This document shows positions 2,849 through 55,374 of a DNA stretch of 64,000 nucleotides, in pieces. Both the position numbers and the translations under genes were made by a program. The notes beneath the pieces are model-generated. The model saw nothing but the letters and a program-made list of their open reading frames with translations. It was not told the DNA's origin and did no database searches. Source of the DNA: Candidatus Latescibacterota bacterium (GTDB lineage Bacteria > Latescibacterota > UBA2968 > UBA8231). The first letter of the stretch is position 1, and each line of letters starts with the position of its first letter. Location: the NCBI GenBank assembly GCA_965248265.1, contig CBDFJF010000002.1, positions 1,952,001 to 2,016,000 of the forward strand. The letters run 5' to 3'.

Positions 2849-2956
2849 ATGAACAACCCAGTACAAGGACGCGTCGTTGAGAAAGGATCCGGCGAGGGCG
2901 TGCCGGAGATCCCCCCCTCAGTGCCTGGCGTCCGCAGGCCGCCAACCCGTGGATGA
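2849..2956 (+). pseudogene. 5' fragment duplicating the start of the 11292 metallophosphoesterase gene
   Basis: MNNPVQGRVVEKGSGEGVPEIP versus MSQPVQGRVIERESGEGVPEIP; 57/65 nt identical by manual alignment; then diverges and stops after 35 codons. Confidence 0.8.
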
Positions 2957-3002
2957 TCGGGAGGATGCTGTCGCGGAGTTATCGGGGTGATCCGTGGACG
3001 CG

Positions 3003-4052
3003 CTACAGCACGACCGGCCTTCCGGTGCGGGCCGACTCGTAAATGGCCACGATGATTTCGAGCGGCTTTCTGCCCTCGTGCTGATCGACCGCGGTCGGTC
3101 TGTCCTCTCTGACCGCCTCCACGAGGTCGGTGATCTGGAGAACATGGCCCGCCGCGTTCATGGCACCGGGATCACTGGCAGCTCCGCCGGAAGGATCGCT
3201 AAGGACCACATCTGCGGGGATCTCCTGTCCCTCGATGTCCCAGGACACCAGCACGTCTTCCGCCATCACGATGGTCCCGTTCTCGCCTGAGATCTCCATT
3301 CGGCGCGGATAACCCGGGTACACCGAAGTCGTGCCCTGGATGACACCGAGCGCTCCGCTTTCCCATTCCACCACGGCGGATGCGGTGTCCTCGACCTCGA
3401 TGTTTTTGCGCACGAGCGTTTTGACGATGCCGTGGATGGATTTGGGGCGACCCATCACATGCTGCAGCACGTCAATGCCGTGAATACCCTGGTTCATCAG
3501 CGCGCCGCCGCCGTCCATTTCCCAGGTTCCCCTCCAGCCGCCCGAGTCGTAGTACTCCTGAGAGCGGAAGAACTTCATATAGACGTCACCGGAAACCAGC
3601 CGGCCCAGCACGCCCTCATCGACGGCTCTCCTCAACCGGCGCAACGCCGGCGAGTACCGCAGCTGGGAGACGACTTCCATTTTCACGCCGCTCGACTCCA
3701 CCGCCTCTATGGCCGCGTCCGCCTCTTCGAGATTCAACGCCATTGGCTTCTCGACGACGATATGCTTGCCGGCTCTGGCCGCTTCGACTGACAGGCGAGC
3801 GTGATGACCCGTGGGCGTGCAGATGCAGACCGCGTCGACCTCGCTGCTTGCCAGGAGCTCTTCGACCGAATCGAAAGCCTGGCCTCCGTGTTTTGCGGTC
3901 AGCTTATGCCGGGATTGCCCGGTCACGTCGGCGGCGCCGACCAGCCGCGCGCCCTCCACGTCGGCCAACGCCGTGGCATGAAAGTTGGCAATCATGCCAC
4001 ATCCGATAATTCCGAACCCCATTCCACTGTTGCTCATCGTATTCAACCTCAC
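3003..4052 (-). CDS. Gfo/Idh/MocA family NAD(P)-dependent oxidoreductase
   Basis: GIIGCGMIA Rossmann motif, CTPTGHH, VEKPMA, GGGALMNQGIHGID. Confidence 0.93.
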   Translation of the reverse strand: MRLNTMSNSGMGFGIIGCGMIANFHATALADVEGARLVGAADVTGQSRHKLTAKHGGQAFDSVEELLASSEVDAVCICTPTGHHARLSVEAARAGKHIVVEKPMALNLEEADAAIEAVESSGVKMEVVSQLRYSPALRRLRRAVDEGVLGRLVSGDVYMKFFRSQEYYDSGGWRGTWEMDGGGALMNQGIHGIDVLQHVMGRPKSIHGIVKTLVRKNIEVEDTASAVVEWESGALGVIQGTTSVYPGYPRRMEISGENGTIVMAEDVLVSWDIEGQEIPADVVLSDPSGGAASDPGAMNAAGHVLQITDLVEAVREDRPTAVDQHEGRKPLEIIVAIYESARTGRPVVL

Positions 4053-5383
4053 ACAATATTAGAAGCGCCCCAGGCACCCATATCCGGTGGATTGCCCTCG
4101 TCGCCGGCCAGCAGCTCGCCGTAGTTGGCCGCCACTTTCCTGAAAGCATTGGCATATTCCTCGATGATCTCCGGCCGGTAGTGCTTGAACCAGGGGATCT
4201 CGAAGACCCGCTCGCTGAAGCCCTCGGTCGCAGGCAGGCTGCCCGGCGGCTGCCTGAGATCGCGGTCGGAGTTGGCAATTCGTGTCGGCTTGCCGTGGCC
4301 GTAGATGTCGGCCGTGTTGAACAGCGGGTGCAGGTGCAGTGGTTTGTTGCATCCGGGGACACAGGTGGTCGCACCCTCCGCCCGCACCGCCTCCGCGAAC
4401 CTGGATACCGAGAGATTCCCCAGCTGTGCGGGATTGTACAGACCACGGGCGGCATACCAGCCCCCCATCGTGCTGCCGCTGCCCTTAGGCGGCCGGTGGG
4501 CAACCACCCCCGGCACCCCTTCGAGCAGGTCCCAGAAGTGATTCATGGCCCTGTCGATCTGTGCTATGCGCTCATCGTAATACTTGAGCTGGACCTGGCC
4601 CACGGCGGCGCTCATCTGATGCATCCGGAATTTGTGCCCACCCATGGGCAATCCGGCATACGGCTGCAGGCTCTCGGTCTGCACGGTGTCGTCGAATCTC
4701 AGATAGTGTCCCCAGGCCACGCAGCGCTCGTGCACCTCCAGATCATCGGTGACGACGATTCCGGCCTCGCCGATGGCCATGCTTTTGTAGGTCATCAGCG
4801 ACATGGCTCCGACATCGAAGGTGCCCAGCTTCCTGCCCTTGTAGAGACTGCCCTGGCCGTGGGACACATCCTCGATGACCCGCAGACCGTGCTTGTTGGC
4901 GATCGCCATGATCGCGTCCATGTCGGCGGGATATCCCAGATAGTGGACGACCATGATCGCCTTGGTGCGATCGGTTATCCGGTGCTCGATGTCTCCGGGA
5001 TCGATACAGAGTGTGTCCGCGTCGATGTCGGCAAAGACGACGGTTGCTCCCAGGCTGTAGCACTGGAGGATCGACGCCCAGAAGGTGGCGCTGGGACAGA
5101 TGATCTCATCACCGATGCCGATCTTGCAGCCGAACATGGCCGAGTGCACGGCGGATGTTCCGTTGTTGGTCCCGAGGGCGTATTTCGTTCCCATCCACGC
5201 GGCGAACTCCTGCTCGAACTGCCTGGTCTGGTCGATATCCGACATCTTTCTCTGCCGCAGAACGCCCAGCACGGCCTCCTCGTCTTCGGATGTGACGATC
5301 GGCCACGTGAACATGTCACCGGGATCCCGCTGCACTGCCTTGGGCCCGCCCAGGAGCGCCAGTTGTGCTGAGATACTCATCAT
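4049..5383 (-). CDS. DegT/DnrJ/EryC1/StrS family PLP-dependent aminotransferase
   Basis: LALLGG start, NNGTSA, TKAIMVVH, IEDVSHG, SLMTYKS (PLP lysine), GEAG. Confidence 0.93.
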   Translation of the reverse strand: MMSISAQLALLGGPKAVQRDPGDMFTWPIVTSEDEEAVLGVLRQRKMSDIDQTRQFEQEFAAWMGTKYALGTNNGTSAVHSAMFGCKIGIGDEIICPSATFWASILQCYSLGATVVFADIDADTLCIDPGDIEHRITDRTKAIMVVHYLGYPADMDAIMAIANKHGLRVIEDVSHGQGSLYKGRKLGTFDVGAMSLMTYKSMAIGEAGIVVTDDLEVHERCVAWGHYLRFDDTVQTESLQPYAGLPMGGHKFRMHQMSAAVGQVQLKYYDERIAQIDRAMNHFWDLLEGVPGVVAHRPPKGSGSTMGGWYAARGLYNPAQLGNLSVSRFAEAVRAEGATTCVPGCNKPLHLHPLFNTADIYGHGKPTRIANSDRDLRQPPGSLPATEGFSERVFEIPWFKHYRPEIIEEYANAFRKVAANYGELLAGDEGNPPDMGAWGASNIV

Positions 5384-5410
5384 CCCTTCCTCCGAGTTTA
5401 TCCGGTACTG

Positions 5411-6709
5411 TTACGACCGCGCCGGATCCTGATCAATCAACTCATACACGAGGTGGTGGACACCTTCGAGCACTTCTTGCTCGGAAGCAGCCGTGTAGGC
5501 GCCGTCAGCCTCGTATCCTCCCTCATCGAGCATATGCGCGCGGGGAAAATATCCGACATCGCCCGATGTGTACCCCAGAACAAATACCTTTCCGTGTCCC
5601 GCCAGATCTTTTTCGATATCGAGTGCGTACTCTCCCATTGGCTCGCCGGGCAGTCCGACAAACCACACGTCACCGATCCTCATCGCCTTTATGGGGAAGT
5701 TCACGAAGCCGTCTTCGATACGGTCCCTCTTGTCCAACGCTCGATCCTGTTTTGCTTCATCGGCGGTTACCGCCAACATCTCGTGACCGGCTGAAATACT
5801 GAACGCCTGCTCGCGCTTATCGACAAACTCGCGCACCCTCAGCCTGGTGGCGACTTTCACAGCCTCAGCTCCGAGCGACCAGCCGCACCACATCACATCG
5901 ATCTCGCCGCCGCTGCGGCCAAAGTCGTCGACGCTCGATTTCCAACCCCCGATCGAGGGTAGATTCGCCCGAACATCACCGCTGCATCCCTGGAGAAACA
6001 TCGCCGTTGTCCTGGCGCCGAAGCTCCGCTCCACGAATGCTTTGGCCACACCCGGAAAGTCTGCAGTGATCTGGGTGTTGGCGCCACGGAAGACGTTGGC
6101 ATGACAGACGGCATGCATGATAACGGCCATGGGCTCGGCGCTGTCTCCATCATCGATGCGCAGGACTTTGACACGGTGGTCGCATATCCCATCCGGGTTC
6201 AGTCCGCTGTGGCACTTGCCGTCGGCATCGATGCACCGACGGTTGACGTTGAAGTCGATGATTCCCTCTCCATACCCGAGGCTTACCGGCCGCAGGTTGC
6301 CCACCGCCATGCTGACCGCGCCGGCAACCTTCGCCGTAACCTCATGCTGATAGCATTCATCGGTATGAAACCAGGGACTGCCGTGGGTATGTGATGTGTT
6401 GATGATGATGTGGTCCGGGGCAATTCCAGATGTTTCCCCGATGGCGGCTCTGAATGCATCGCCATCCCGCTGCATTGCCTGTATCGAATCCAGGGTCACC
6501 AGTGCCGCGCGCTTCTTCCCGTCGTCGAACACGACAGCCACTGCGTGAAGCGGATCGCGGATGCCGGTTGCAGGGCCTTCCCGGTCGGCATATCCACCGA
6601 GAGGAACCGATATGGGGGGCGTGATATCCACTCTGGCGATACCGGCCGCGAGATTGGTCAGGACCACTGCGTCGGGAGCTGGCTCATTTGGTTGCCCATT
6701 GTCTGCCAT
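5411..6709 (-). CDS. Neutral/alkaline ceramidase-like amidohydrolase
   Basis: RVDITPP, RDPLHA, SHTHGSP, CHAN, ADFPG, FLQGCSGD, LPGEP and GGYE motifs. Confidence 0.85.
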   Translation of the reverse strand: MADNGQPNEPAPDAVVLTNLAAGIARVDITPPISVPLGGYADREGPATGIRDPLHAVAVVFDDGKKRAALVTLDSIQAMQRDGDAFRAAIGETSGIAPDHIIINTSHTHGSPWFHTDECYQHEVTAKVAGAVSMAVGNLRPVSLGYGEGIIDFNVNRRCIDADGKCHSGLNPDGICDHRVKVLRIDDGDSAEPMAVIMHAVCHANVFRGANTQITADFPGVAKAFVERSFGARTTAMFLQGCSGDVRANLPSIGGWKSSVDDFGRSGGEIDVMWCGWSLGAEAVKVATRLRVREFVDKREQAFSISAGHEMLAVTADEAKQDRALDKRDRIEDGFVNFPIKAMRIGDVWFVGLPGEPMGEYALDIEKDLAGHGKVFVLGYTSGDVGYFPRAHMLDEGGYEADGAYTAASEQEVLEGVHHLVYELIDQDPARS

Positions 6710-6924
6710 GTGTATTCACCTTGATCAAATGGGTTGCAGGCTGTCTCAGTGTCCTACCTCTATAGTAGTCCGACTCCGGCTCAGCTCAATGACGGGGAGG
6801 GGCTCGTCAACAACCGCGCTTACCTCGAGCTGGCGCCATATGTCGGTCCGGAATTCCAAATGGCCGAAGTCGGTGCGCTCTGGCAGACATCACATGGGGG
6901 TGTCGGTTCCCTATCACAGCGACC

Positions 6925-8043
6925 TCACACCGTGACGCGCGCCCAGCGCACACTCAGCTGCGTCGAATCCGATCCCGCGTAGTAGATGAGCAGGACCTGA
7001 CCGTCTTCGAGCTCGACGCCGGCGGGATGTCCGAACGACCACACGGCCATACTGTCCCAGTACTCGTCGTAATCGGCACCGTCCATCCCGGCTTCACGGC
7101 CAGGGGTATCGTAAAGGGAAATCTCGCCGTCGTGGTCCCAGCTCCTGCCGTCATCGCCGGAGATGATCAACCGCATGGAGCCGGGCGAGTGCCGGTGCAC
7201 GTAAAACGCCAGCAGGCGCCCGTCACGCAGCGGGATCGGCGCGGCGATCTGGCCGTCGATGCCGGTCGAGACCGGCTCGCTCCAGGTCAGCGAGTCCGGG
7301 TCTCCCCATGCCAGGTGCAGCGGCACGTCGGTCTCTGTCTTGCGGTCGTAGGTCCAGAAGAGAGCGACAGGTCGGCCCGTCCGCGGGCAGACCGCCTGGC
7401 GTTGATCCCAGTAGACGTACTTGCGTCCGGGGTGGCTGGCGACTTCGGCGATGCGGTCGTAGGAGCGGCCATCGCGGCTGAACAGCCCGGCGGCCACCTG
7501 CAGCTCAGGTTCTCCGGGCGCCTTCGAGGCGCAGTGCTCGAACGTGAGCAGCCAGCCCTTGCCCGGGAAGCGCAGCGGAGCGCCAGCCAGCACGGACGAG
7601 TGCAGTGCGCCGGTGTCCAGGAGCTCGTAGTCGCTCCAGGTGCGCCCACCGTCATTCGACTCCGCCTTCAGCAGTTTCGCCGGAGCCAGCTCCAGCGTGT
7701 CGGGGTTGCGGATGACGTCAGGTGGTGTTTCGGATCGATCCAGCCACGACAGGAAGCCGACGAGCGTACCGTCATCCAGCTCGGTCAGTTCGGCGGCGCG
7801 CACTTCGCCCTCGACGCCATCGACGCGCGATTCGAAGCGTTCGCAGATCGTCCGCCACGTCTTGCCGGCATCCGTCGATTCGGCAATCATGCAGTTTCCG
7901 TCGGGGGACATCTTGGTGCTGCCGCGACGGCACGGGACCAGAATCACTCCGGAATCGAGACGGCAGATGGATGTGAAGAAATGGGCGCGCGGTCCGGAGA
8001 CCGCGTCCGCGTCGACGACGAACCCTTCGTCGATGATTTTCAT
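6925..8043 (-). CDS. BNR/Asp-box repeat sialidase-like protein
   Basis: Asp boxes STDAGKTW, SNDGGRTW, SRDGRSY, SGDDGRSW; GGAGG RBS before MKIIDEG. Confidence 0.85.
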   Translation of the reverse strand: MKIIDEGFVVDADAVSGPRAHFFTSICRLDSGVILVPCRRGSTKMSPDGNCMIAESTDAGKTWRTICERFESRVDGVEGEVRAAELTELDDGTLVGFLSWLDRSETPPDVIRNPDTLELAPAKLLKAESNDGGRTWSDYELLDTGALHSSVLAGAPLRFPGKGWLLTFEHCASKAPGEPELQVAAGLFSRDGRSYDRIAEVASHPGRKYVYWDQRQAVCPRTGRPVALFWTYDRKTETDVPLHLAWGDPDSLTWSEPVSTGIDGQIAAPIPLRDGRLLAFYVHRHSPGSMRLIISGDDGRSWDHDGEISLYDTPGREAGMDGADYDEYWDSMAVWSFGHPAGVELEDGQVLLIYYAGSDSTQLSVRWARVTV

Positions 8044-8144
8044 GTTTCCTCCATGGAGAGCGCTCGTGGATTTCCTGGCGTGAGCCTGCATCGAGAAGTT
8101 TAGTCCGCACACGACAACGCCTCCACCTCTCGGCAGTATTCCGT

Positions 8145-8444
8145 CTACCTGGTCCGGCGACAACGTCTGTACAACCGTGCCCAGTGAAGAGCATCTCGAC
8201 ATCGCGGCAAATCCGGTCTGTTAGGGAGCCCGCCGCCGGCCTCAATCTCTTCCGCCAGCACCCACGAGCTGGCGAGCGTGATACACGCCGCCAACCGCGA
8301 GACACGACAGCCGATCGCCAGCCCGATTGTGAGCGTGACGCCTGGTGCCTGAAACTTCAATGGTGTCTCGATGAATGACAGGCCGAGAGTCAGGCCGAAC
8401 CAGACTAGAGTCGTTGCGACCAATGCCACTCCCAGCATCATCAC
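8145..8444 (-). pseudogene. Small membrane protein (DUF4149-like), probably truncated
   Basis: WFGLTLGLSFIETPLKFQAPGVTLTIGLAIG resembles a conserved small membrane family; the C-terminal half loses hydrophobic character. Confidence 0.5.
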
Positions 8445-8456
8445 GCTCCGTCGTTT

Positions 8457-10442
8457 TCAGTATGGGTAGGCGAACACGGGCACATGGTTGCCGGTGCCGC
8501 CGAGGATGAAGTCGACGACCATCCAGAAGGCGGCGGCCGAGACCTGTCCCAGGATCATGCCCAGGAAGAAGGGCCGCAGTGCGAGGTAGTAGCGCACGCC
8601 GCCGTAGCGCAGGAGGACGGCCTTGAACGTCGAGGCCAGGAAGATACTGAACCAGGCGCGCTTGATGACGTTGCCGGCCGACACGGCGAAACCGATCGGG
8701 TGCAGGGGCCACCACAGGAAGTGGTGCCGCGCCCAGATCAGGGCCGCCATCACCGCCCCGCCCACCGCCGTCCACAGCGCCCGCGGCCACATGATGTCCG
8801 GCGACTCCGAGAACCCCATCGGATTCTGCAGCTTGTACTGGATGTGCGCGTGGGTGTTGCGGGGGTTCCCGATGAAGAACCAGCTCTCCAGGTTGACGGC
8901 GCCGTGCTCGTAGGCCGACCACAGGATGATACCCAGGGAGCCGGCCAGGGTCACGACGATGGCGACGACCATGACCCAGAACAAGGGCCGCTTGAGCGCT
9001 CCCACGCCTTCCGCCAGCTTCATCGCGTTGATGGCGGCCGCCATCAGCAGGACGCGGTTGCTACCGGTCCAGGAGAAGGTCAGGGCGAGGCTGAAGATAC
9101 CGGCGTCCGTCACGGCTGAGGTGCCGGCAAAGTTGGTGAGGATGGTCTGGGACGACACCATCGGCGACATGAATCCGAGTCCGGCCTCGGCGACGACGCG
9201 CGCCGTGAACAGGAAGATGGCGAAGGTCAGCAGCAGAAAAAGGACGGTGTAGAAGAGGGGCACTCCCGACATGTAGAGCCAGATGGTCGTGAAGGTGCCA
9301 CATCCCAGCAGGATCGCCACCGCAGTCCGGTAAGACAGAATCTCGCCGCTGTCGTCGACGCCGCGGCCGGTGATCACCTTGTGCCAGATCGCTTTGATGT
9401 GGCCGCGGCTGACCCAGGCGCCGAAGAGGACGAGGACGACCATGGCCCCCAGACCCTCGTGGGCGATCAGGAGGGTCCCCTCCATGAAGCGTTCGATCTC
9501 GCCCTTCAGGCGGTAACCGACCATGTACTGCCAGGTCATCTGCACCTGGGCAAGCAGGTGGAAGAACCAGAAGCTGGTGGCCACCTGCAGGCTGAGCAGG
9601 TAGGCCAGCCCGAGGACGGTGAAGCTGAGGTTGATCGCCACGGAGTGCATGTCCGGGAAGAGCTTGACGTAAGAGTACAGCAGCGGATCCGGCAGGACGG
9701 GATGGTAGTGGTGCAGTCCCTTCATGCTCAGCAGGATGAAGGCCAGGGCGAAGCCGGACCACATCAGTGGACTGCGGAAGAAGGGTCCCAGCACCTTGCG
9801 TGTCCCGCCCGTCTCCGCCATCTCCATCGGCAGCTGCACCAGAGGGAACGCCAGGCGCTCGTTTTCCACCCACTGGTGCCGCACCAGCACCATGGCGGCG
9901 ATCATCATCAGGTAGATGGCGAAGATGAAGGAGGCCCAGGCCAGCAGCGGCACCAACCAGGCACCCCAGGGCAGGGGCGCGCCGGCGGGCAGTCCCTGGA
10001 AGAAATCCCGAATGGCATTGGCGTCGGAGGGTACCATCCAGTCCCGCACCAGAGGGAACAGCAACTCCTCCCAGTTGTTCTCCGGCGTGGCGAAGTAGTA
10101 GACGGCCGGCAGCATCGGCACCAGGTTGGAAGCGAAGCCCCACGTCGGGATCGTCGACGCGATGATGAGCATGATGTAGATGACCGTCAGCTCGGCGCGG
10201 TTGAATGCCCACTTGGGACGGATCAATCTGATGCAGGGATTGAGAAGCAGGGTGACGAGGAAGAAGACGCAGATGGCCCCGGCGGTAATGTGATCGGAGG
10301 ACATGTCCGACGTCGACAGGACGATGCGCCCGTAGGTGAAGCCGACGCTGATGATGAGGGTCAGCAGGGTCCCGAAGATGACGGATCGCCAGGTGATGGC
10401 GGACCGCTTCGGGGATGCTGTGTCGGAAGGGAGGCTGGTCAT
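8457..10442 (-). CDS. Polytopic membrane protein, DUF6785/DUF6784-type (putative transporter)
   Basis: Many TM segments; RHQWVENERLAFPL, ARVVAEAG, WWPLHPIG, RYGG...PFFLGMILG motifs. Confidence 0.8.
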   Translation of the reverse strand: MTSLPSDTASPKRSAITWRSVIFGTLLTLIISVGFTYGRIVLSTSDMSSDHITAGAICVFFLVTLLLNPCIRLIRPKWAFNRAELTVIYIMLIIASTIPTWGFASNLVPMLPAVYYFATPENNWEELLFPLVRDWMVPSDANAIRDFFQGLPAGAPLPWGAWLVPLLAWASFIFAIYLMMIAAMVLVRHQWVENERLAFPLVQLPMEMAETGGTRKVLGPFFRSPLMWSGFALAFILLSMKGLHHYHPVLPDPLLYSYVKLFPDMHSVAINLSFTVLGLAYLLSLQVATSFWFFHLLAQVQMTWQYMVGYRLKGEIERFMEGTLLIAHEGLGAMVVLVLFGAWVSRGHIKAIWHKVITGRGVDDSGEILSYRTAVAILLGCGTFTTIWLYMSGVPLFYTVLFLLLTFAIFLFTARVVAEAGLGFMSPMVSSQTILTNFAGTSAVTDAGIFSLALTFSWTGSNRVLLMAAAINAMKLAEGVGALKRPLFWVMVVAIVVTLAGSLGIILWSAYEHGAVNLESWFFIGNPRNTHAHIQYKLQNPMGFSESPDIMWPRALWTAVGGAVMAALIWARHHFLWWPLHPIGFAVSAGNVIKRAWFSIFLASTFKAVLLRYGGVRYYLALRPFFLGMILGQVSAAAFWMVVDFILGGTGNHVPVFAYPY

Positions 10443-10779
10443 GCAACCCAACCTCTGCGCAATGCGAGCCTCGAGTACAAGATCAGAAACGCCTCCATAG
10501 CCAGCGGCACCAGCGCGATGTGAGCCGCCAGTGGTTGAACAATGCAATGCGCTGACGATTTCCGCAATCGTTGGTGCCAGATCGCGGTCTGAGTGGGGGC
10601 GATGCTGAGGCTCGAGGCCGGTCCTGTGCCACGCACATATCCGTGCCTATCCCGCCGCTCAGGCGAACCCGATCTCATCTCGACATCTCGCCCCGACCGA
10701 TCTACACTACCTAATAGCAGACTTTGTGCCCTGTGCTACCCTCAGTGCTACGAATGTCCCCCCAGCCCCGGAGCACGCC

Positions 10780-11295
10780 ATGCCTACTCACACCGGCGCA
10801 GTCGCAACAACCGGAGCCCTGCTGGTGATGGCAGCCACTTTCGCCACCTGCGGCTCGAGCGATAGCCCCACCGAGCCAGTCGCCAACTCCTGCTCCACCA
10901 CCATCCCACCTCAACCCGGGTTTCAGCCCCCAGAGCCCTGGCCGGTCACTCACCCGAACGAGGGGAGAGTCTGGTACGGTACCGGGGATCTCTGGACGTC
11001 GCTGGCCACCGACGGCAACCATGACTGGGGCAAGAGCGTGTGGTGGAGCGTCCACTTCGGCGGGGGGGCCATCGAGCCAGACCCCGAAATCGGTGTGGTA
11101 TGGCGCCGCCTCGACGATGGCTCGGCGTTGGTCATAGAAGAACAAGCCCCCGGAACCAACGCCTTCACCGAGGACCACGGCTGGGCCATGTTGAACGGGA
11201 TTGATCCCGACGAATCGGGATGCTGGGAGGTGACGGCCACTTACAGGGGCGCCACTCTCAGCTACGTCTATGAGTACACGGCTGACGACTCATGA
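10780..11295 (+). CDS. Hypothetical exported protein or lipoprotein
   Basis: Hydrophobic N-terminus ending FATC; C-terminal GCWEVTATY motif; stop overlaps the next start. Confidence 0.65.
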   Translation: MPTHTGAVATTGALLVMAATFATCGSSDSPTEPVANSCSTTIPPQPGFQPPEPWPVTHPNEGRVWYGTGDLWTSLATDGNHDWGKSVWWSVHFGGGAIEPDPEIGVVWRRLDDGSALVIEEQAPGTNAFTEDHGWAMLNGIDPDESGCWEVTATYRGATLSYVYEYTADDS

Positions 11296-36996: not shown

Positions 36997-37042
36997 GAGT
37001 GGCCAAGGGGCCGTGCAAAGGAGAGCCGAGGAGGAGCGTAGA

Positions 37043-37951: not shown

Positions 37952-37965
37952 CCAACCTGACAGGT

Positions 37966-38027: not shown

Positions 38028-38091
38028 CCGCAGGTCGAGGTGACGGTGGAGTCCGAAGGGCGCATTGGATGAACCCCGACGAGAGAATGAC

Positions 38092-40551: not shown

Positions 40552-40562
40552 GTTCGACGTTC

Positions 40563-41264: not shown

Positions 41265-41482
41265 TTTGTGTTCTCCTTGTGCTCATTTGAGTGACAACAC
41301 CGAAAAATAAATGTAGCTGCATCATGAGACAATCATGGGGCGCTCTTCACAGCTCGAACAGCTTCCTCACTCTGCCCCGACGGATCGGGAACCGGCTGCG
41401 CGCAGGTCCGTCCAAACTTGCCTGCCGCCGGCACGCGCCCTAACCTGTCGTTGCCACCGACCAACCATCAGGAAACCACACA

Positions 41483-42871: not shown

Positions 42872-42912
42872 TGCGAACCAACAGGATGATTCGGGGCTTG
42901 ATGGCGGGTTTC

Positions 42913-44346: not shown

Positions 44347-44351
44347 GTCTC

Positions 44352-46639: not shown

Positions 46640-46833
46640 GGTACAGGGACAAAGCGCGATATCGTCGCCACCGTCAAGATCGCGGCAGGTGCCGGGCTGT
46701 TGATTAGCGCTCGTTACCGGGCTGTGTAGCGCGCTCTTCGTTGACAACACGCCGCGCTTAGCACAGCTTGCGGACGTGTATGTGTGATCACCGTTCGTGG
46801 CGCCAGATGAGCCCAGACGAGTAGGAGTGTAGA

Positions 46834-48332: not shown

Positions 48333-48431
48333 GCTTCTCGCTCCCTTGTTTCTCCATTCGGCGATCAGTGATCCGATGATCGACGGCCCGGCCTCACCGC
48401 CTTCACCTGGTTGTTGTAGAGTCGCAGACCG

Positions 48432-49409
48432 TCAGTTCATTTTCGTCATGTCTCTTCCAGACATGTCGTCCTGGTCTGACATGGCGAGGCGGAAGCCCGT
48501 GTTCTCACGCGTGGTCGAATCCGGCGAGCTGTTGCGGTGAGTCGTGCGCACGTTGGGCCGGGTCTCGGCGAAGAACCCGCCGCGGAGCACGCGTTCCTGG
48601 CCGCCCTCCGGACCTTTCGGGTTAACGGCCGGGCTGAACGAATAGTAGTTCTCTTCGAAGTAGTCGGAGCACCACTCGTAGACGTTGCCGGACATGTCCC
48701 AGACGCCGAAAGGGGAACGGCCGAGAGGGAACTCGTCAACGGGAAGGGTAGTGCCAACCATGTTGTTGGAGTTGCAGCGTTCTCCGTCTACGAAACGATT
48801 GCCCCAGGGATACAGACGTTCATCGTCGCCGCGCGCCGCCATCTCCCACTCGGCCTCGGTGGGCAGGCGGCCCCCCATCCACTCCGCGTATTCCCTGGCG
48901 TCATGGAAGGAGACGTTGACGACGGGATGGCGCGCCAGTCCGGTAGGATAGGTCCCGCGCTGCCAGTGGATCGGGGTGGTGTGACCGGTGCAGTTGACGA
49001 ACTCACGGTAGTCCTGATTCGTCACCGGATAGGTGTCGATGTAGTAGGAGGAGATCTGGACCAAGTGCGAGGGGCGCTCGTTGTCGGGTGAGTCTTCTTC
49101 CCGCCCGCCCATTGAGAACGAACCCGTCGGGATGTGGACCATCCTTCTCTTGTTGGCCTCGGGAAGCAGCTCCACCCGCCTCTGTTCGACCTCCTCCATC
49201 TGCAGATCGATGTCTTCCTGGCCGCTCCTGATCTGGACGAGGTCTTCCTGAACCTTGCCCATACGCTGCACCATATCCCGATGCCGAGTCTCCTGGTGGT
49301 CGATCATCTCCATCAGCTTCTTGGAGGGTTTGTTGAAGTCGAGGAGGAGCATGACGAAATACAGACTGATTGCGCAGGTCAATATCCACCACATCCAACT
49401 GTCAGTCAT
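48432..49409 (-). CDS. Membrane-anchored FGE-sulfatase (SUMF1) domain protein
   Basis: TM helix, coiled coil, FSMG, PVVNVS, RLPTEAEWE, DMSGNVYEW, RGG, GFR. Confidence 0.92.
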   Translation of the reverse strand: MTDSWMWWILTCAISLYFVMLLLDFNKPSKKLMEMIDHQETRHRDMVQRMGKVQEDLVQIRSGQEDIDLQMEEVEQRRVELLPEANKRRMVHIPTGSFSMGGREEDSPDNERPSHLVQISSYYIDTYPVTNQDYREFVNCTGHTTPIHWQRGTYPTGLARHPVVNVSFHDAREYAEWMGGRLPTEAEWEMAARGDDERLYPWGNRFVDGERCNSNNMVGTTLPVDEFPLGRSPFGVWDMSGNVYEWCSDYFEENYYSFSPAVNPKGPEGGQERVLRGGFFAETRPNVRTTHRNSSPDSTTRENTGFRLAMSDQDDMSGRDMTKMN

Positions 49410-49481
49410 AACCGATCTCTCCTGTATGGGGCTCTTGCGCCACGCGGCGAGCCCGGTCCTCCGCTCTCTCTAATGTTTCTA

Positions 49482-49718
49482 TTAACTAATCCTCACCGCC
49501 TCCACCAGGTTTTCATCGAAATAGTCGGTTCCGATCGTCACCATAAACTCACTCACATGCTCGGATCGAGCCAGGCCGACCCCTTCGAGGTAGGACCGAA
49601 CCGAGGCTAGCTCCGTGAGGCGGTTCAATCCTTGCCAACCGCCCGGCGGGCAAGTATCGTAGCAACCAGGTCCAGCGCCAAAAGGAGGCACTATCATGCG
49701 ATCTTTTTTTGTGCTCAT
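49482..49718 (-). CDS. Small hypothetical or chimeric ORF ending in a copy of the NHL gene 3' end
   Basis: Ends ...ENLVEAVRIS* like NNQVKAVRIS* of 53236-55374; AAGGA RBS. Confidence 0.35.
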   Translation of the reverse strand: MSTKKDRMIVPPFGAGPGCYDTCPPGGWQGLNRLTELASVRSYLEGVGLARSEHVSEFMVTIGTDYFDENLVEAVRIS

Positions 49719-49777
49719 CGCCGTCCTTTCCCCCTTGCTCGCCCCACCCCGCCCCGGAAGTGTTGCAGTCGACGCCC

Positions 49778-50758
49778 CTATATAGGAGTTGCCGACCAAA
49801 AGACAAATCGAAATACTGTCATATTTGAAGTATTCCCTATGTTTCCAACAGCTCGGGCTACTTCGATCCACTCGGGGTGGCTATCAGATTTAACCTCAAT
49901 CCTATAGTCGTTTGCTACCTGAAGCTCAAACGCTATCCTAATGACCAAAGATTGATCAGGTCCACTGTAGGATGGATCTGTTAAATCATACGAGAGTACG
50001 ATGTGTTCAGTTCCGTCTGCGGCAATAAACCCCTGCCTAATGAAGCCGCCCTCGACCAGCGGTTGGAATCCGATCTCACTTCCCGTTAATTCTGAGCTAT
50101 CCGTCACTACAATAATGTTCGAACCACTCGGGAAGAACGCAGCCCCCCCTTCGCCATCCGCCGGAGAGTCGTCCGTCAGCCGAACTGTGATGGCACTGGG
50201 AGTTTGTTCATCGCCGGACAAAGGAAGGCCACTCATGACATATGTGCCATCTTGGACCTCTACCGGCTCAAAACTTTCTATATCCAGACTTAGAGTATAG
50301 TCTGTCTCTTCTTCGCCAAATGAGAATACGACGACAATGTATTTTCCTGCATCTAAGAGTACACCTTCTTCAGAATAACCGGGCGGACGATAAGCGTACC
50401 CGACGCGGGTATATGTGTCATCCTCAACTTTCAATATGGAAAGCTGGGCTTCGATTGAGGTTTCTAAAACAATTGTCGCTATGTTAACAGGTTGATCTAA
50501 ATTCAATTCAAAAACGTGACCGGTCCCAGGCAACAACATACTCTGTATAATTTCATCCTCGGACAAAGAGCCCATTATTACAGCATTTACTCCTATTGCA
50601 GCTAACGTGATCTCGCTTTTCTCTACATCGCTTGAAAGAGAGTCAATCCTGGCCCCAAGCTCAGCTATATCTTCTTCAAGTTTGTCTATGTCCGTCGGTT
50701 TAGCAGACTCACATCCCATAAAACCAATAGCCAGCATGAAAACCAACATCCATCTCAT
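49778..50758 (-). CDS. Putative lipoprotein of unknown function
   Basis: MRWMLVFMLAIGFMGC lipobox-like, coiled coil, PPC-like LDAGKYIVVV segment; visibly AT-richer than the flanks. Confidence 0.75.
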   Translation of the reverse strand: MRWMLVFMLAIGFMGCESAKPTDIDKLEEDIAELGARIDSLSSDVEKSEITLAAIGVNAVIMGSLSEDEIIQSMLLPGTGHVFELNLDQPVNIATIVLETSIEAQLSILKVEDDTYTRVGYAYRPPGYSEEGVLLDAGKYIVVVFSFGEEETDYTLSLDIESFEPVEVQDGTYVMSGLPLSGDEQTPSAITVRLTDDSPADGEGGAAFFPSGSNIIVVTDSSELTGSEIGFQPLVEGGFIRQGFIAADGTEHIVLSYDLTDPSYSGPDQSLVIRIAFELQVANDYRIEVKSDSHPEWIEVARAVGNIGNTSNMTVFRFVFWSATPI

Positions 50759-50877
50759 TCCTCGAGTCTCCTCTCCACTCGGCAGCAGCGACAAAGCACA
50801 GCCGCGCTGAACACGCTTGCCCCTGGGTTTCTACATTGTCAGGTTAGGCGACGCCCCGAACGACGAACGTCGAGACG

Positions 50878-51297
50878 TCAGCTCTCGGGTAGACCCCAAA
50901 CTTCTGGCGTGGCTATCTCTACGCTATTCCCTCCCGGATCACGAAAGTAGATAGAATGGCCTCCACCCGGCCACGGGAAGTCCGCCTCAACCGCGACACC
51001 ATGCGAATTGAGGTGGGCTCTCCATTGCGCCAGTTCCTCCCTCTCGGCTCGAAAAGCCACGTGGCCTTCCCCGCTGGCCCCGTGGAGCGGTACCGGCACG
51101 CCGGAAACAGCAGCTTGGTGTTCGCGTGTCGATTCCGGGTTGAATACCAGAAAAACAGCTTCTCCGCAGCGAAAGAACGCGTGTCGATCCTCAACCCGTG
51201 CAAAGCATTCCAGCCCCAAGATTGTCGCGTAGAATTGTTCCGCCGCATCGAGGTCTGAGCAGTAGATGGCTGTCTCAAGTACACCGCGTGCTCTCAT
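50878..51297 (-). CDS. VOC/glyoxalase family protein
   Basis: VLETAIY, AEQFY, GHVAF, SIYFRDPGGNSVE motifs. Confidence 0.92.
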   Translation of the reverse strand: MRARGVLETAIYCSDLDAAEQFYATILGLECFARVEDRHAFFRCGEAVFLVFNPESTREHQAAVSGVPVPLHGASGEGHVAFRAEREELAQWRAHLNSHGVAVEADFPWPGGGHSIYFRDPGGNSVEIATPEVWGLPES

Positions 51298-51367
51298 GCT
51301 GTTTTCCTCATCTTCGGCGGTTAGTTCGCTTATGATGTCCTCTTGGGTTGCTCGCCGCTGAAGTCTT

Positions 51368-51454
51368 TCACTTCTCGGCCAAAAGCTCCTCCACGTGCTT
51401 TTGAAAGTCGAGCATATCGGGAGGAGTTCCGACATAGGCATAGCGCACGATTCC
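51368..51454 (-). pseudogene. C-terminal remnant of a TlpA/redoxin-like gene
   Basis: Manual translation GIVRYAYVGTPPDMLDFQKHVEELLAEK*, with no start and an upstream stop. Confidence 0.45.
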
Positions 51455-51560
51455 TTAGATCGCCATCAATCTCGATCCCCGTTAATCGCACAGATCGCAG
51501 GACTACGGAGCTACGGCTACAGCATCTGTCACGCGGGCTCTGAACAGTGGATGGATCGAG

Positions 51561-53057
51561 TCAGAATGCCTGATCCGTCTCCCTCATCGGTAGGCTAACT
51601 GTCACCTCCGTACCTGTCCCAACTTCGCTTTGGATCCGGATTTCCCCATGATGATCCTGGATAATCTTGAAGTCAGTGGACAGTCCAAACCTCATTTTCA
51701 TCCGGCTGTCACCGGTTTGAAAGCCAAAGTCGAAAATGCGCTCCAACTGTTCGGGTGGAATCCCTATACCTGTATCAGAGAAACAGATATAGACGGTGTC
51801 ATCTGCCATTGAGGTGCTGATCTCTATTTCTCCTGTGCCTTCGATGGCTTGAAGCGCATTCTTGAGAAGATGCATGAAGACCTGGTTCAACTGTCCGGGA
51901 GCGCAATACACCGGCTCGATATCACCGTAATTCTTGGTCACGGCGATCTTCTCACTGATCTGGCTTTCCAGCAGCGTCAGGGCGCTGTCGATCCCTTCGT
52001 GGATGTCCACCGTCTGAAACTCGGCCTCGTCCAGCCGGGCGAAATTCCGCAGGCTGCCGACCACAGCGCTCACACGTTCGGTACCGTTGGCTATCACCCG
52101 ATTGGCATTGGCCACTACTTCGAGCATTGACTGAATGGTCCGATTGTCCTTGACAGCGGGGAACGTGGTCTCAAGCGTCCGTGTCAGTTTGTCTACGGCG
52201 CGGATCAACGTGTCGTGCATACTGCCGATGGCCCCCAGCGGCGTGTTCATCTCGTGCGCCACGCCGGATACCAGATCGCCCAAAGAGGCCATTTTCTCCT
52301 GCATGACCAGTTGGTTCTGCGTCTCTCTGAGCAGGCGCAAGTTCTGTTCCAGTACCCTGTTCTGTTCCTCTACCCGCTGAAAATCGAGATAACGCACATA
52401 GCCCAACGACAGGGCATCAGTCAGTTCCTGGACGATGGTCAGGTGCTCTGCCACTCGTGTAGGTGTTATGAGGCCGACGATGCCATGCTCAAACGGCACG
52501 TAGTTAAAAGCCCATTCGGCTCTATCGGGTATTGGAATAGGCCGGTCCAGGCCCCAGGACTGGGTCATCGCCTCAAACCTTGACGCATAGTCCTCGCCGC
52601 TGACCGCAATCGTTATCACTTCCCCTCGGCGCCACGAATCGATCATTGTCTGATCCCTTGAACTGGACAATTTCACTTCCCCTACCACGATCTCGTCATT
52701 GAACTCAAACAAGTGGGACGAAGTCCATGAGATGCCGAACTTTCTCGGGTTGGGGAAGGCGTAGTAGCGTCTTCTAACATGAACACCATCCTCATCCTCC
52801 TCCAAGAATCGAATGGTGGGTCCCAAGTTCTCGATTCCCAGATTCACCATCTCCTCCCACATCATTCCCATTACCTTGAGGAGATCGTCGCTGGACCGCA
52901 TGGCCATAGCCTCTGCCCGCATCCGCTCTACAGCCAACTGACGCTCGACGCCGGATACATCGCCCCTCGTCACCTTCTTGCGGAGGTCGGCATTCTCACC
53001 ACGCAACTCATCCAGTTCCTCGATGAGCTGAGCCTTCGTCTTTCTCTTGTCATTCAT
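51561..53057 (-). CDS. Cytoplasmic sensor histidine kinase (GAF-like, HisKA, HATPase)
   Basis: EKMASLG, AHEMNTP H-box, QVFMHLLKNA, DTGIGI; no TM segment. Confidence 0.92.
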   Translation of the reverse strand: MNDKRKTKAQLIEELDELRGENADLRKKVTRGDVSGVERQLAVERMRAEAMAMRSSDDLLKVMGMMWEEMVNLGIENLGPTIRFLEEDEDGVHVRRRYYAFPNPRKFGISWTSSHLFEFNDEIVVGEVKLSSSRDQTMIDSWRRGEVITIAVSGEDYASRFEAMTQSWGLDRPIPIPDRAEWAFNYVPFEHGIVGLITPTRVAEHLTIVQELTDALSLGYVRYLDFQRVEEQNRVLEQNLRLLRETQNQLVMQEKMASLGDLVSGVAHEMNTPLGAIGSMHDTLIRAVDKLTRTLETTFPAVKDNRTIQSMLEVVANANRVIANGTERVSAVVGSLRNFARLDEAEFQTVDIHEGIDSALTLLESQISEKIAVTKNYGDIEPVYCAPGQLNQVFMHLLKNALQAIEGTGEIEISTSMADDTVYICFSDTGIGIPPEQLERIFDFGFQTGDSRMKMRFGLSTDFKIIQDHHGEIRIQSEVGTGTEVTVSLPMRETDQAF

Positions 53058-53235
53058 GGCAGTAGAATAACAACCCCGTTGTAGGTATCATGGGAGCAGA
53101 AGAAGACCGGCAGCAGGGCTATCGTAGCCCAGACGGACAGAGAGGGAGTTCGCATAGATCGCATTGATATCGACTCAGAGTTGGCCGATAGGGTACGGAG
53201 ATTCGGAGGGTGGGCCAAGCTGGGGGCTACTTCAT

Positions 53236-55374
53236 TTAACTAATCCTCACTGCCTTCACCTGGTTGTTGTAGAAGTCGCTGACTAACAGGATATGAGAGT
53301 CGAAGAAGCAGATCCCGTGGGGCTCATTGAACGGGGCTGATGTGGCAGGGGTGTCATCGGCTGCGTTGCCGTGCTCGCCGTTGCCGACGACGGTCTCCAG
53401 GCAACCATCCGCATTGACCCGCCGCACCCGGTTGTTGCCCATGTCGGAGAAATAGAGGTCGCCGCTCGACGGTGCCAGGGCGATGCTGCGCGGTGAGCTG
53501 ATCTGCGCCTCCACAGCCGGCGTACCATCGGGGGAGTAGCCGGGCTGTCCGGTGCCGACTACGGTCATTATGAGGCCGCTGGTCAGGTCGACCTTGCGAA
53601 TTACATGCTCGGTCATGTCGCTGAAGTAGAGGACCCCGCCGCCAGCTGCCAGGGCCAATTCTGATGGAGAACCGATGCGGGCTTCGGTGGCCGGTCCACG
53701 GTCACCGGTGTAACCGGGCAGACCAATGCCGGCCACGGTGGTGATGATGCCGGTGGCAGCCTCTACCTTGCGGATGCGTCCGACCGCCGTATCACTGATA
53801 TAGAGGTCCCCGTTGTCTGCGTAAACCAGGGCCTCCAAGAAGCCGAAGCAGGCGCTCACCGCTGGTCCACCATCCCCCTTGTCCCACTGCTGACCGGTGC
53901 CGGCAATGGTGGTAATGACACCGTCATCGCCCACGCGCCGCACGTGCGAATGCCGGCAGTCGGCGATGGTCACCCGTCCCAGCGAATCGACGGCGACGTG
54001 GCTCGGGTTGCCGAGGTAGGCGTCGTTGGCAGGACCGCCGTCGCCGCCATAGGCGCGTGCGCCGTTGCCGGCGACTCCGCGGATGATGCCGGTTATCGGG
54101 TCGATGGCACGAATGCGCTGATTCCAGCGGTCGGCCAGGTAAATATGCCCGTCGGGGCCGATGTCCATGCCCTCGACCCCGTTGAGGAACGCATTGGTAG
54201 CAACCTCGCCATCGTGGACACTGGTTCCGCCCAGAACAGTTGTGACGATTCCGGTGACGCCATCGTAACGGCGCGTGCGGCCGGAGCAGTCACAGTAGTG
54301 GACGGTGCCATCGGGATCGGCCCATACGCCACCTTCTATTGAAGCGACACGGGTTTGCGGTCCCGGCAGGCCCTCCGCGCCGAAACCAGGTTCACCGGTG
54401 CCCACCAGCGTCGTGACGATGCCGGTGGCTCCATCGACCTTGCGGACACGGAAGCCGTATTTCTCACCCACGTAGAGGTTGTCGTGTACGTCGAAGCAGA
54501 TGGCATCCGGCATCAGGATGCTGGCTTGCGTTGCCGGTCCGCCATCACCGTTGGAGGCGCGTTGGCCGTTGCCGAGTACCGTCGTGATGATGCCCGTCTG
54601 CATGTCGATCTTGCGAATGCGGTCGTTGGAGTTGTCGCAGACGTAGAGGTTGTCCTTCGAGTCGAAGGCCAGGTGTTCTGGATGCCAGAACGCGGCATCG
54701 ATGGCTGGGCCGCCGTCGCCGTGGTACCCCTGAAACGAACACCACTGGCCGCCGGCAGGCCGGCTGTTGCCACTCTCACTCGGATAATGGCGGGCGTCTT
54801 GACCGGCAAAGCGCTCGATGATGCCGGTCTTGGCATCGATACGGCGCACGTTGTTGGACCATTCGCCGGCTAAGAAGATGTCGCCGTTACGGGCTACGGC
54901 GATGCCGCAGGTGGTGTCGGTCTCTGCCTCCACCGCCGGTCCGCCATCACCTCCACGGCCAACCTTTCCACTGCCGGCCACGTGGGTGATGATGCCGGTG
55001 CGGCCATCGATGCGGCGGAAAATCGAGCAGTTCTGGTCGTTGACGTAGACGTTGCCCTCGTAGTCGAGGCACACATCGTGCGGATAACTCATCCGGGCTT
55101 CGTTCGCCGGTCCGCCGTCGCCGGTCCATCCGGGGATACCATCTCCGGCAAAGGTGTGGAGGATGCCGTCGCCGTCGATGCGCCAGACACGCTGCCCCTG
55201 GTAATCGGCAACGATGAGGTCGCCCCCATGCGGTTGGTTCGGCGGCAGGCGAACGATGCCGAAGGGCCAACCGGCGTCCGCCTCTTTGGCGGGGATGCCG
55301 TCCTGATAACCGGCGCCTGCGATCGTCATCATGTGGCCGGGGGCCAGCTTCTGAAAGCGCTCGTGCAGGTTCAT
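53236..55374 (-). CDS. NHL-repeat (teneurin-like) beta-propeller protein
   Basis: About 12 repeats of GIITTVAG..G..GDGGPA..A...P; no signal peptide. Confidence 0.92.
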   Translation of the reverse strand: MNLHERFQKLAPGHMMTIAGAGYQDGIPAKEADAGWPFGIVRLPPNQPHGGDLIVADYQGQRVWRIDGDGILHTFAGDGIPGWTGDGGPANEARMSYPHDVCLDYEGNVYVNDQNCSIFRRIDGRTGIITHVAGSGKVGRGGDGGPAVEAETDTTCGIAVARNGDIFLAGEWSNNVRRIDAKTGIIERFAGQDARHYPSESGNSRPAGGQWCSFQGYHGDGGPAIDAAFWHPEHLAFDSKDNLYVCDNSNDRIRKIDMQTGIITTVLGNGQRASNGDGGPATQASILMPDAICFDVHDNLYVGEKYGFRVRKVDGATGIVTTLVGTGEPGFGAEGLPGPQTRVASIEGGVWADPDGTVHYCDCSGRTRRYDGVTGIVTTVLGGTSVHDGEVATNAFLNGVEGMDIGPDGHIYLADRWNQRIRAIDPITGIIRGVAGNGARAYGGDGGPANDAYLGNPSHVAVDSLGRVTIADCRHSHVRRVGDDGVITTIAGTGQQWDKGDGGPAVSACFGFLEALVYADNGDLYISDTAVGRIRKVEAATGIITTVAGIGLPGYTGDRGPATEARIGSPSELALAAGGGVLYFSDMTEHVIRKVDLTSGLIMTVVGTGQPGYSPDGTPAVEAQISSPRSIALAPSSGDLYFSDMGNNRVRRVNADGCLETVVGNGEHGNAADDTPATSAPFNEPHGICFFDSHILLVSDFYNNQVKAVRIS

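Follow-up and report, generated by a model that had tools for sequence, protein, structure and literature searches.

Most accessory genes of bacteria sit in 'hotspots' that hold no mobile-element gene, and their arrival is usually inferred rather than read from the DNA. Here we describe a window, by which we mean the whole analyzed stretch of 64,000 nucleotides of a Candidatus Latescibacterota bacterium (contig CBDFJF010000002.1), in which short and imperfect direct copies of gene starts and gene ends bracket blocks of unrelated genes at five loci. These copies, referred to as scars, and the blocks between them, referred to as cargo units, are the subject of this report, together with the recombination processes by which they may have arisen.

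Several described systems resemble this arrangement in part. In conjugation experiments on lacZ in Escherichia coli, 56 of 60 clones selected for homology-facilitated illegitimate recombination (HFIR) were products of a single crossover with a circular molecule, by which the end of lacZ was duplicated, and these duplications measured 109-950 bp in the 14 sequenced clones (PMC3240628). HFIR proper, according to the same source, usually deletes recipient DNA of about the size of the insert and involves 3-10 bp of microhomology (PMC3240628). The C-terminal displacement arrays of rhs loci consist of an intact gene followed by direct, displaced and frameshifted partial copies of its 3' end with differing DNA behind them; the repeats there are a long core (91.6% amino acid identity in Serratia, identical within E. 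coli loci) and the cargo consists of toxin tips (Jackson et al., 2009, PMC2935791). Furthermore, the orphan immunity arrays of the type VI secretion system (T6SS) of Vibrio cholerae are ascribed to successive insertions at one conserved anchor, by which older genes are pushed further downstream; the anchor is proposed to provide homology on one side only, the arrays are presented without mobile-element genes, and the authors favor an HFIR-like event in which the old effector is replaced (Kirchberger et al., 2017, PMC5361080). Finally, the prophage e14 in icd/icdC leaves an intact gene end beside the insert and a diverged C-terminal fragment at its far end, and is excised by site-specific recombination (PMC13626634).

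Seven pairs of repeated gene termini at five loci

Pairs of repeats were sought by repeat finding combined with a self-BLASTN search of the window at a word size of 7, and all five loci that the initial annotation had listed as imperfect direct copies of a gene start, gene end or promoter were recovered to within a few bases. The five loci hold seven pairs of imperfect direct repeats, 39-200 nt long, 79.5-93.5% identical and spaced 797-9791 nt apart; of the two copies in each pair, one forms the functional start or end of a gene and one is a dead fragment, with unrelated genes in between. The intact copies all span a start or stop codon, and the genes concerned are supported by Pfam or by close orthologues. 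In all seven pairs the copies are in direct orientation, and each outer flank runs on without a break into one of them. In this way, at least seven cargo units of 0.7 to about 9 kb each are enclosed within 50 kb, most of the cargo having a host-like G+C content at third codon positions (GC3) and three cargo stretches being compositionally foreign. The repeats look like the junction scars of at least seven separate insertions, with two termini used twice to give tandem arrays. To this extent the original proposal of recurrent insertion at gene tips, each event leaving a second copy of the tip, is supported in part; the mechanisms that it named are not.

Two null models frame these numbers. The reversed, non-complemented window yielded a single high-scoring segment pair (HSP) at E<=1e-3 (5.5e-4), and five triplet-shuffled windows yielded none at this threshold. 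Six of the pairs, with E-values from 3e-52 to 3e-7, lie far past chance, while the pair 49477/53231, at 6e-4 against a null best of 5.5e-4, is marginal by score and hence rests on its position, flush with a stop codon. Among the 19 non-self HSPs of the window at E<=1e-3, six are scars and 13 fall inside true paralogues or internal NHL repeats. By hand arithmetic, five random pairs in 64 kb would all be direct and at most 10 kb apart with a chance of about 6e-5. In a tblastn search, second copies were found for two proteins, and the fragments cover only residues 1-22 of the metallophosphoesterase and residues 1-25 of the permease described below.

The features are as follows, with the families of cargo units 1, 2, 4b and 5b taken from Pfam.

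Locus 1
2842..2913, plus strand: scar 1 fragment, 7 nt upstream and the first 22 codons of a metallophosphoesterase/PQQ-propeller gene
2914..11284, genes on the minus strand: cargo unit 1, 8.4 kb
11285..11356, plus strand: scar 1 intact copy, working start of gene 11292..13406 (704 aa; MetallophosN/Metallophos/PQQ_2)

Locus 2
24066..24282, minus strand: scar 2 fragment, a decayed GFO/IDH/MocA 3' piece and about 125 nt of downstream DNA
24283..33698, no strand assigned: cargo unit 2, 9.4 kb
33699..33898, minus strand: scar 2 intact copy, the last 25 codons of the GFO/IDH/MocA gene 33824..34930 and 125 nt downstream

Locus 3, nested in cargo unit 2
27497..27584, minus strand: scar 3 permease-side copy, the last 5 codons and stop of an ABC ATPase gene, a spacer and the start of the FtsX permease gene 25021..27567
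27585..28293, minus strand: cargo unit 3, a VapBC unit of 709 nt with an AT-rich palindromic promoter region, a vapB-like gene (28019..28252) and a PIN/vapC gene (27675..28022)
28294..28396, minus strand: scar 3 ATPase-side copy, joined to the working ATPase gene 28379..29059, with a dead permease start and one extra 15-nt unit

Locus 4
37024..37073, plus strand: scar 4 copy A ('S1'), ribosome-binding site and first 10 codons of the type of gene 46834
37074..37965, plus strand: cargo unit 4a, 0.9 kb, a PA0069/SplB-like radical-SAM gene (NCBIfam, below curated cut-offs; PHROGs)
37966..38096, plus strand: scar 4 copy B, upstream element 'P1' (37966-38027), then a stretch that is faintly similar, with gaps, to the start region and reaches an ATG
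38097..46733, no strand assigned: cargo unit 4b, 8.6 kb
46734..46864, plus strand: scar 4 copy C, intact, element 'P2', spacer, ribosome-binding site and start of gene 46834..47418

Locus 5
48392..48442, minus strand: scar 5 copy a, about 12 codons of the 3' end of an NHL gene (LYNNQVKAVR), with a 1-nt gap
48443..49476, minus strand: cargo unit 5b, 1.0 kb, FGE-sulfatase-family gene 48432..49409
49477..49520, minus strand: scar 5 copy b, 13 codons and stop (FDENLVEAVRIS*), the 3' end of the doubtful ORF 49482..49871
49521..53230, minus strand: cargo unit 5a, 3.7 kb, G+C 0.52-0.55, a lipoprotein-like ORF, a glyoxalase-family gene and the histidine kinase gene 51561..53057
53231..53283, minus strand: scar 5 copy c, intact, 3' end of the NHL-repeat gene 53236..55374 (...FYNNQVKAVRIS*)

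Decay of a redundant gene end at locus 2

The copies at 24066-24261 and 33699-33898 align over 200 columns at 83.5% identity (E 3e-52), which confirms the repeat reported initially, although its left fragment is longer than had been noted: positions 24248-24282 also match the gene body at 34167-34201 (85.7%; E 2.4e-7 in a local search and 2e-3 all-against-all) and encode RGKAQGKL, as does the intact gene. The two alignments have offsets 282 nt apart and overlap on a 14-nt stretch that is present twice in the intact gene with 12 of 14 bases alike, so that the fragment was once at least about 500 nt long and lost 94 codons by a microhomology deletion. It now comprises 9 codons, the 282-nt deletion, and 25 codons with a 1-nt frameshift and the stop. 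It also carries a change from G to E at a glycine kept in 37 of the 42 homologues listed, the C-terminus of the intact GFO protein being family-like; taken as a test of the native copy, these C-termini reveal the decay of the fragment and not which copy is native.

A sigma70-like promoter (TTGATT-17-TACAAT) in the left copy faces ORF 23689..23943 and is degenerate in the right copy. As the promoter-like site persists only on the left and the coding end only on the right, each half of the junction is kept where it is needed. A reading of the pair as a non-coding RNA was rejected, given that there is no Rfam match in the window and that the repeat holds a dead coding end. Between the copies, cargo unit 2 encodes a GDSL lipase, the MacB/FtsX permease, VapBC, the ABC ATPase, GDPD, MarR and a luciferase-domain protein, as well as a di-haem peroxidase with a Por_Secre_tail domain; the G+C content in this region drops to 0.55-0.59 at 30-34 kb. 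The local search that extended pair 2 found no further eroded remnants beside the fragments of loci 1, 3, 4 and 5.

Tandem arrays at loci 4 and 5

At locus 5, copy a starts directly after the stop of the FGE-sulfatase gene and matches the intact end of the NHL gene over 39 columns (48392-48429 / 53245-53283; 92.3%, E 3e-7). The repeat is thus real, but its earlier description as a copy of the gene end holds only in part, as it stops two codons short of the stop codon; past AVR it diverges into a tail, PGRRSSDH*, that is unlike any C-terminus of the family. Copy b matches the intact end over 44 nt (49477-49520 / 53231-53274; 79.5%, E 6e-4). The intact end itself (AVRIS*) conforms to the family, for which 35 C-termini were compared and the last six residues tallied over 120 proteins; used as a test of the native copy, this comparison shows only that the intact end is family-like. 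The proposition that cargo unit 5a came from an episome gained no support, its plasmid matches being confined to histidine-kinase motifs of about 90 nt in 13 Azospirillum records.

Locus 4 repeats this layout at a 5' end. Copies A and C share 50 nt at 90% identity (37024-37073 / 46815-46864; E 1e-11), and copies B and C share the upstream element over 64 columns at 79.7% (37966-38027 / 46734-46797; E 9e-8). Beyond 38027, copy B continues as a third and more diverged copy of the start region, a likeness that is weak, gapped and judged by eye. Copy A forms an in-frame fusion ahead of the radical-SAM gene; since that gene resembles its family only from about residue 20 onward (NCBIfam matches start at residues 19-40), the gene did not originally include copy A. 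Copy C is the native start of gene 46834, given that two close orthologues begin MSDTI(N/D)GTIRW. The upstream element contains TTGACA and is not a consensus promoter by scan, which leaves the label 'promoter', previously given to 37966/46734, unconfirmed. Cargo unit 4b encodes DUF4838/GH2_N, cupin and PhyH proteins, a 504-aa paralogue of ORF 1393..2832, a GFO/IDH/MocA paralogue and an MR/MLE enolase, with a GC3 of 0.74-0.82 for five of these six genes (the GFO paralogue was unscored).

Junctions at loci 1 and 3

The scar 1 fragment starts 10 nt past the stop of ORF 1393..2832 and matches the working gene start over 72 nt (2842-2913 / 11285-11356; 86.1%, E 5e-17). Between the copies lie genes for a GFO/IDH/MocA oxidoreductase, a DegT-type aminotransferase, ceramidase-like and BNR-like proteins and a DUF6785/DUF6784 membrane protein, followed by a 744-nt gap; their GC3 (0.67-0.89) is similar to that of the flanking genes. 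Orthologues of 11292..13406 at 69-86% identity share the same N-terminal motif, and the N-termini of the metallophosphoesterases of relatives were not decisive as to which copy is native and which imported. In a related species (86% identity), three records (P0020-P0022) have the full N-terminus of this protein, and two more (P0002 and P0016) start at a codon matching codon 19, three codons from the scar 1 boundary. The shorter start hints at variation at this very point, or at a mere difference in gene calling.

At locus 3, the junction between the ATPase and permease genes is present twice, around the VapBC unit. The copies share 77 nt (27497-27573 / 28294-28370; 93.5%, E 3e-26) and an additional 22 nt at 95.5% (27563-27584 / 28375-28396), and the right copy has an extra 15-nt tandem unit. 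The spacer concerned (28343-28396) is built of tandem 15-nt units (GTCCTGATGCC followed by 4 variable bases), one more in the right copy than in the left. For the VapBC unit there is no relative of at least 90% identity in the protein collection and no plasmid match. As a separate observation, vapC is seemingly frameshifted near its 3' end (27646-27740, minus strand): the annotated frame ends in ...GLESCRATSISRS*, and another frame ends in ...LSRDKHFSQLSQHVPLSLH*, which seems to resemble the usual C-terminus of VapC.

Divergence between the copies

Over the coding parts of all pairs there are 41 differences, distributed 12/10/19 over codon positions 1/2/3, and the codons that differ comprise 13 synonymous and 21 non-synonymous cases. 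An excess at third positions as between orthologues found no support (12/10/19 against a uniform distribution, chi-square p about 0.2, by hand), and this pattern is not that of two orthologues that had both long been functional. Neutral decay of a single copy would fit it, and it is silent on divergence at arrival. The earlier suggestion that the incoming copy was already diverged is accordingly not demonstrated by these counts, and the fragment of pair 2 shows plain decay after insertion.

Absence of mobile-element machinery and of a shared site

The window contains no tRNA and no Rfam family, and no integrase, transposase or phage-type protein was found in 60 ORFs by Pfam, 24 by NCBIfam and 23 by PHROGs. 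None of the 25 longest inverted repeats of the window lies at a cargo boundary. These scans uphold the initial statement that neither transposase nor integrase, tRNA or terminal inverted repeat accompanies the scars, and also its distinction of the scars from the target duplications of insertion sequences (IS): unlike IS elements and transposons, the cargo units have no transposase and no terminal inverted repeats at their edges, and the repeats are 39-200 nt long and imperfect. A recombinase hidden among the ORFs left unannotated was rejected as well, with 49778..50794 reading as a lipoprotein and NCBIfam and PHROGs returning nothing relevant.

A trans-acting integration system, the second mechanism that had been put forward, finds no footing in the sites themselves. 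No k-mer core was common to the five sites above random controls, so that a single recombinase with a common core was rejected, and DNA folding of the 11 repeat copies gave z-scores of -2.3 to +1.5 with no conserved hairpin, by which attC-like or other hairpin-forming sites were rejected.

Comparison with described systems

The phenomenon is a known kind of recombination scar; it stands out by its density (seven units in 50 kb), by cargo that consists of ordinary metabolic genes, and by the fact that not only gene ends but also gene starts and a promoter-start unit are involved. The lacZ case likewise combines direct duplication of the target end with an insert that has no recombinase, and its duplication sizes overlap with those seen here; it involved a laboratory plasmid with identical homology (PMC3240628), whereas the copies in the window are 80-94% identical, the cargo is of chromosomal type, and the circle would have to be postulated. 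The layout of rhs arrays recurs in pair 5 and, at a 5' end, in pair 4, with three copies each. Unlike the rhs repeats, those of the window are 39-200 nt long and 80-94% identical and lie at the starts and ends of metabolic, transport and beta-propeller genes, and in place of toxin tips with immunity genes, as at rhs and T6SS loci, the cargo comprises FGE-sulfatase, histidine kinase, glyoxalase, radical-SAM and sugar-metabolism genes, with no toxin-immunity logic apart from the single VapBC cassette. The V. cholerae arrays share with the window the proposed one-sided anchor and the lack of mobile-element genes, and differ in that an effector would be replaced there (PMC5361080), whereas here a terminus is duplicated and no replacement is seen.

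The e14 insertion offers the same order of an intact end beside the insert and a diverged fragment at the far side, but as a prophage with site-specific excision (PMC13626634), in contrast to seven cargo units that hold no recombinase or phage gene. Integron cassettes, finally, are similar in their small units (including single-gene units, the small ones being 0.7-1.0 kb, and one toxin-antitoxin unit) arranged in tandem between repeated boundaries, and dissimilar in that the window has no attC-like hairpin, no common core and no IntI, and that its larger units have genes on both strands.

Gene content of relatives

Two kinds of data on relatives were used: a scan of genome contigs with the DUF1538 gene 35897..36658 as query, whose 10-kb flanks were meant to cover pairs 2-4, and, as indirect evidence, exact-sequence look-ups in protein clusters at 90% identity. 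The contig of the closest relative (1,144,417 nt) carries orthologues of at least 90% identity for the CN hydrolase, FGE-sulfatase and M24 peptidase genes, and an NHL orthologue (P0026) that is near-identical except for one missing 57-aa repeat and forms its own 90% cluster. In these clusters the same contig has no orthologue of at least 90% identity for the glyoxalase or histidine kinase genes of cargo unit 5a; the glyoxalase has no relative at this level at all, and relatives of the histidine kinase occur only on contigs of 528,059 and 620,369 nt. By this comparison, the closest relative may lack cargo unit 5a (49521-53230). In a more distant relative, both the metallophosphoesterase (P0005, P0024) and the NHL protein (P0030, P0152) are reported on contigs of 15,522 and 430,605 nt, and the two genes thus appear to lie no more than 15.5 kb apart there, against 39.8 kb here.

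The DUF1538 scan returned, among its best 80 loci, matches of 60-81% protein identity, mostly in Desulfobacterales, which share nothing with the window outside the DUF1538-DUF1538-P-II module and show no nucleotide similarity. As an observation in its own right, the proteins of this module are 73-82% identical to those of Desulfobacterales and allied genomes, with unshared surroundings, and the module looks horizontally acquired; in the window its three genes (DUF1538-DUF1538-P-II-like, 35073-36996) occupy the very place at which scar 4 copy A lacks its upstream element. The number of NHL repeats varies between near relatives, as P0026 lacks one 57-residue unit, and the NHL-repeat protein 53236-55374 is 62-66% identical among homologues named from several phyla.

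Proposed insertion-duplication and its alternatives

The reading that we favor, with a confidence that stands at an even balance, is that of insertion-duplication at a homologous anchor, after which the redundant copy decayed. A circular or self-circularized DNA molecule would carry cargo beside a segment with homology to the tip of a gene already present, this tip consisting of the first or last 10-25 codons with adjoining intergenic DNA and having originally been longer. A single homologous crossover within the tip (Campbell-type, or 'insertion-duplication') would then produce the order flank, terminus copy, cargo, terminus copy, flank. The copy joined to the gene body would keep the gene whole, and the other would decay through substitutions, frameshifts and deletions to the 40-200 nt seen today. 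Since the docking sequence would be regenerated each time, the same terminus could be used again, which would account for the arrays at 37024-46864 and 48392-53283 with three copies and two cargo units each. Only termini would be seen because, as we propose, insertions elsewhere in genes would be lost by selection. We infer the circular donor, the single crossover, the original length of homology and related bacteria as donors from this arrangement; the match of pair 2 to the gene body at 34167-34201, which implies that homology was once longer, supports the homologous anchor. Insertion-duplication is further favored by the topology of the pairs, given that a target directly duplicated around an insert is the mark of a single crossover with a circular molecule, and by the decay of the pair 2 fragment, the separate survival of the two halves of its junction, the lack of a common core, hairpin, recombinase or tRNA, the indirect signs that cargo varies among relatives, and the precedents described above.

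Several points weigh against insertion-duplication. No empty site, donor or circular form was seen, the DUF1538 scan having given no close relative; the apparent absence of cargo unit 5a rests on 90%-identity clusters and not on the DNA of the relative, and the co-location of proteins in relatives is inferred only from equal sizes of the reported contigs. For recombination that depends on RecA, the present repeats and the longest identical runs within them (15-28 nt, by eye) are short, and formerly longer homology is visible at one of the five loci only, the search for remnants at the other four having found none. Copy a of locus 5, without its last two codons and stop and with its odd tail, calls for an extra deletion or another kind of join, and copy A of locus 4, without the upstream element, calls for a further event. 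Lastly, the host-like GC3 of most cargo fits donors of the same lineage and, equally, internal rearrangement.

The identical runs in each pair could also hold an att core, and the two tandem arrays look as if a single att site had been used repeatedly, as would be expected of site-specific elements of the e14/icd type, in which an integrase acts at an att site in the gene tip, a replacement tip is carried along, and the integrase has been lost or acts in trans. The near copies here are family-like and the far copies are fragments, in the manner of a replacement end beside the gene body with a displaced end on the far side. Such elements would, however, be expected to contain a tyrosine or serine recombinase gene, usually beside one att site, and the Pfam, NCBIfam and PHROGs scans found no integrase, excisionase or phage-like gene in the seven cargo units; a recombinase could still be encoded outside the window. 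The five sites lack a common core, the cargo is mainly ordinary metabolic genes with host-like GC3, and two units measure only 0.7-1.0 kb. The homology at e14/icd is about 165 nt; that of pair 2 formerly extended into the gene body by at least about 375 nt, which is more. We therefore regard integration of this type as unlikely, though it is the strongest of the alternatives. HFIR of linear transforming DNA, with one end anchored by homology in the gene body and the other joined illegitimately, is a shade less plausible still. It needs no recombinase gene in the cargo, as seen here, and it has been put forward as the origin of similar arrays, in which genes are displaced, at rhs loci and in T6SS clusters of Vibrio (PMC5361080); its usual product according to the lacZ study is a deletion in the recipient (PMC3240628), whereas all five loci show a duplication, for which reason HFIR as worded in the initial annotation is not sustained. 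A duplication would need the illegitimate join to lie beyond the crossover, which we reason to be impossible with a single linear fragment on one chromosome.

The cargo could also be resident, with no import at all and the fragments being the remains of paralogues or of local segmental duplications deleted in place. The window is indeed rich in true paralogues, the fragment of pair 2 demonstrably shrank by deletion, and both the codon-position pattern and the host-like composition of most cargo fit decay in place. Random deletion of paralogues would, however, leave internal pieces or mixed orientations, neither of which was found among the HSPs, while at all five loci the fragments keep only the extreme tip, abutting the outer flank; in addition, three cargo stretches are compositionally foreign and one block is seemingly absent from the closest relative. 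We consider an origin in place improbable, to the same degree as HFIR. Very little weight falls on an artifact, whether a strain-chimeric assembly, chance or functionally conserved short motifs. The source seems to be uncultured, its relatives occur almost only in metagenome-derived records, and the pair 49477/53231 scores no better than the best match in the reversed window. Against this, the other six pairs exceed the null best by orders of magnitude (3e-7 to 3e-52 vs 5.5e-4), the repeats include frameshifted, dead coding sequence, so that a conserved function is unlikely, the window proteins are placed on a single contig of 4,141,828 nt in the protein collection, and a mis-join would, as we reason, not yield ordered same-strand copies at both edges of seven blocks.

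Other features of the window

The window has a G+C content of about 60% and some 60 genes, which by Pfam include sugar-type oxidoreductases, dioxygenases, transporters, sensor kinases and beta-propeller proteins; the names of more distant homologues of its proteins include Latescibacterota, Gemmatimonadetes and Chloroflexi. True paralogues comprise three GFO/IDH/MocA, two PhyH and two DUF1538 genes. ORFs 1393..2832 and 42913..44427 are likewise paralogues (45% amino acid identity), on opposite strands and 40 kb apart, the former in the backbone adjoining scar 1 and the latter (504 aa) within cargo unit 4b; neither has a Pfam family, and similarity, itself weak, was found only to the model of a beta-1,2-mannobiose phosphorylase (23.7 bits, cut-off 450).

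A block of low G+C content (0.53-0.58, with GC3 as low as 0.38-0.43) extends over 14300-22300 and encodes a GST, a methyltransferase, GrpB-DUF2442, two APH-family kinases and several ORFs without a family; self-BLASTN of the window found no recognizable terminus scar at its edges. Three sensor histidine kinase genes lie within 12 kb (51561-53057, 58044-59639 and 62434-63996), the first of them inside the low-G+C cargo unit 5a; the first and second encode proteins with 46% identity across their catalytic halves.

Implications for gene gain

Scars of this kind give exact boundaries of insertions, the order of events where units are nested or in tandem, and a mechanism that can be tested. We can further imagine, as an improbable generalization, that gene termini serve as reusable docking sites for gene gain, without a recombinase of their own or with a trans-acting one, and that cassettes of 0.7-9 kb, each with a short gene-tip copy, circulate among related cells and insert and loop out at the tip in question. 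If this were true, and if the density found here (about one unit per 7-9 kb) held over the 4.1-Mb genome, such insertion would be the dominant route for accessory genes, and the scars would form a readable and ordered record of acquisitions. Should scars prove common in this sparsely sampled lineage, one-sided homology and insertion-duplication would feed gene gain beside double crossovers in flanking core genes, and gene starts and promoter-start units would be displaceable in the same way as the 3' tips of rhs genes. If they are instead confined to this region, the window would represent a local zone of plasticity with ordinary recombination scars.

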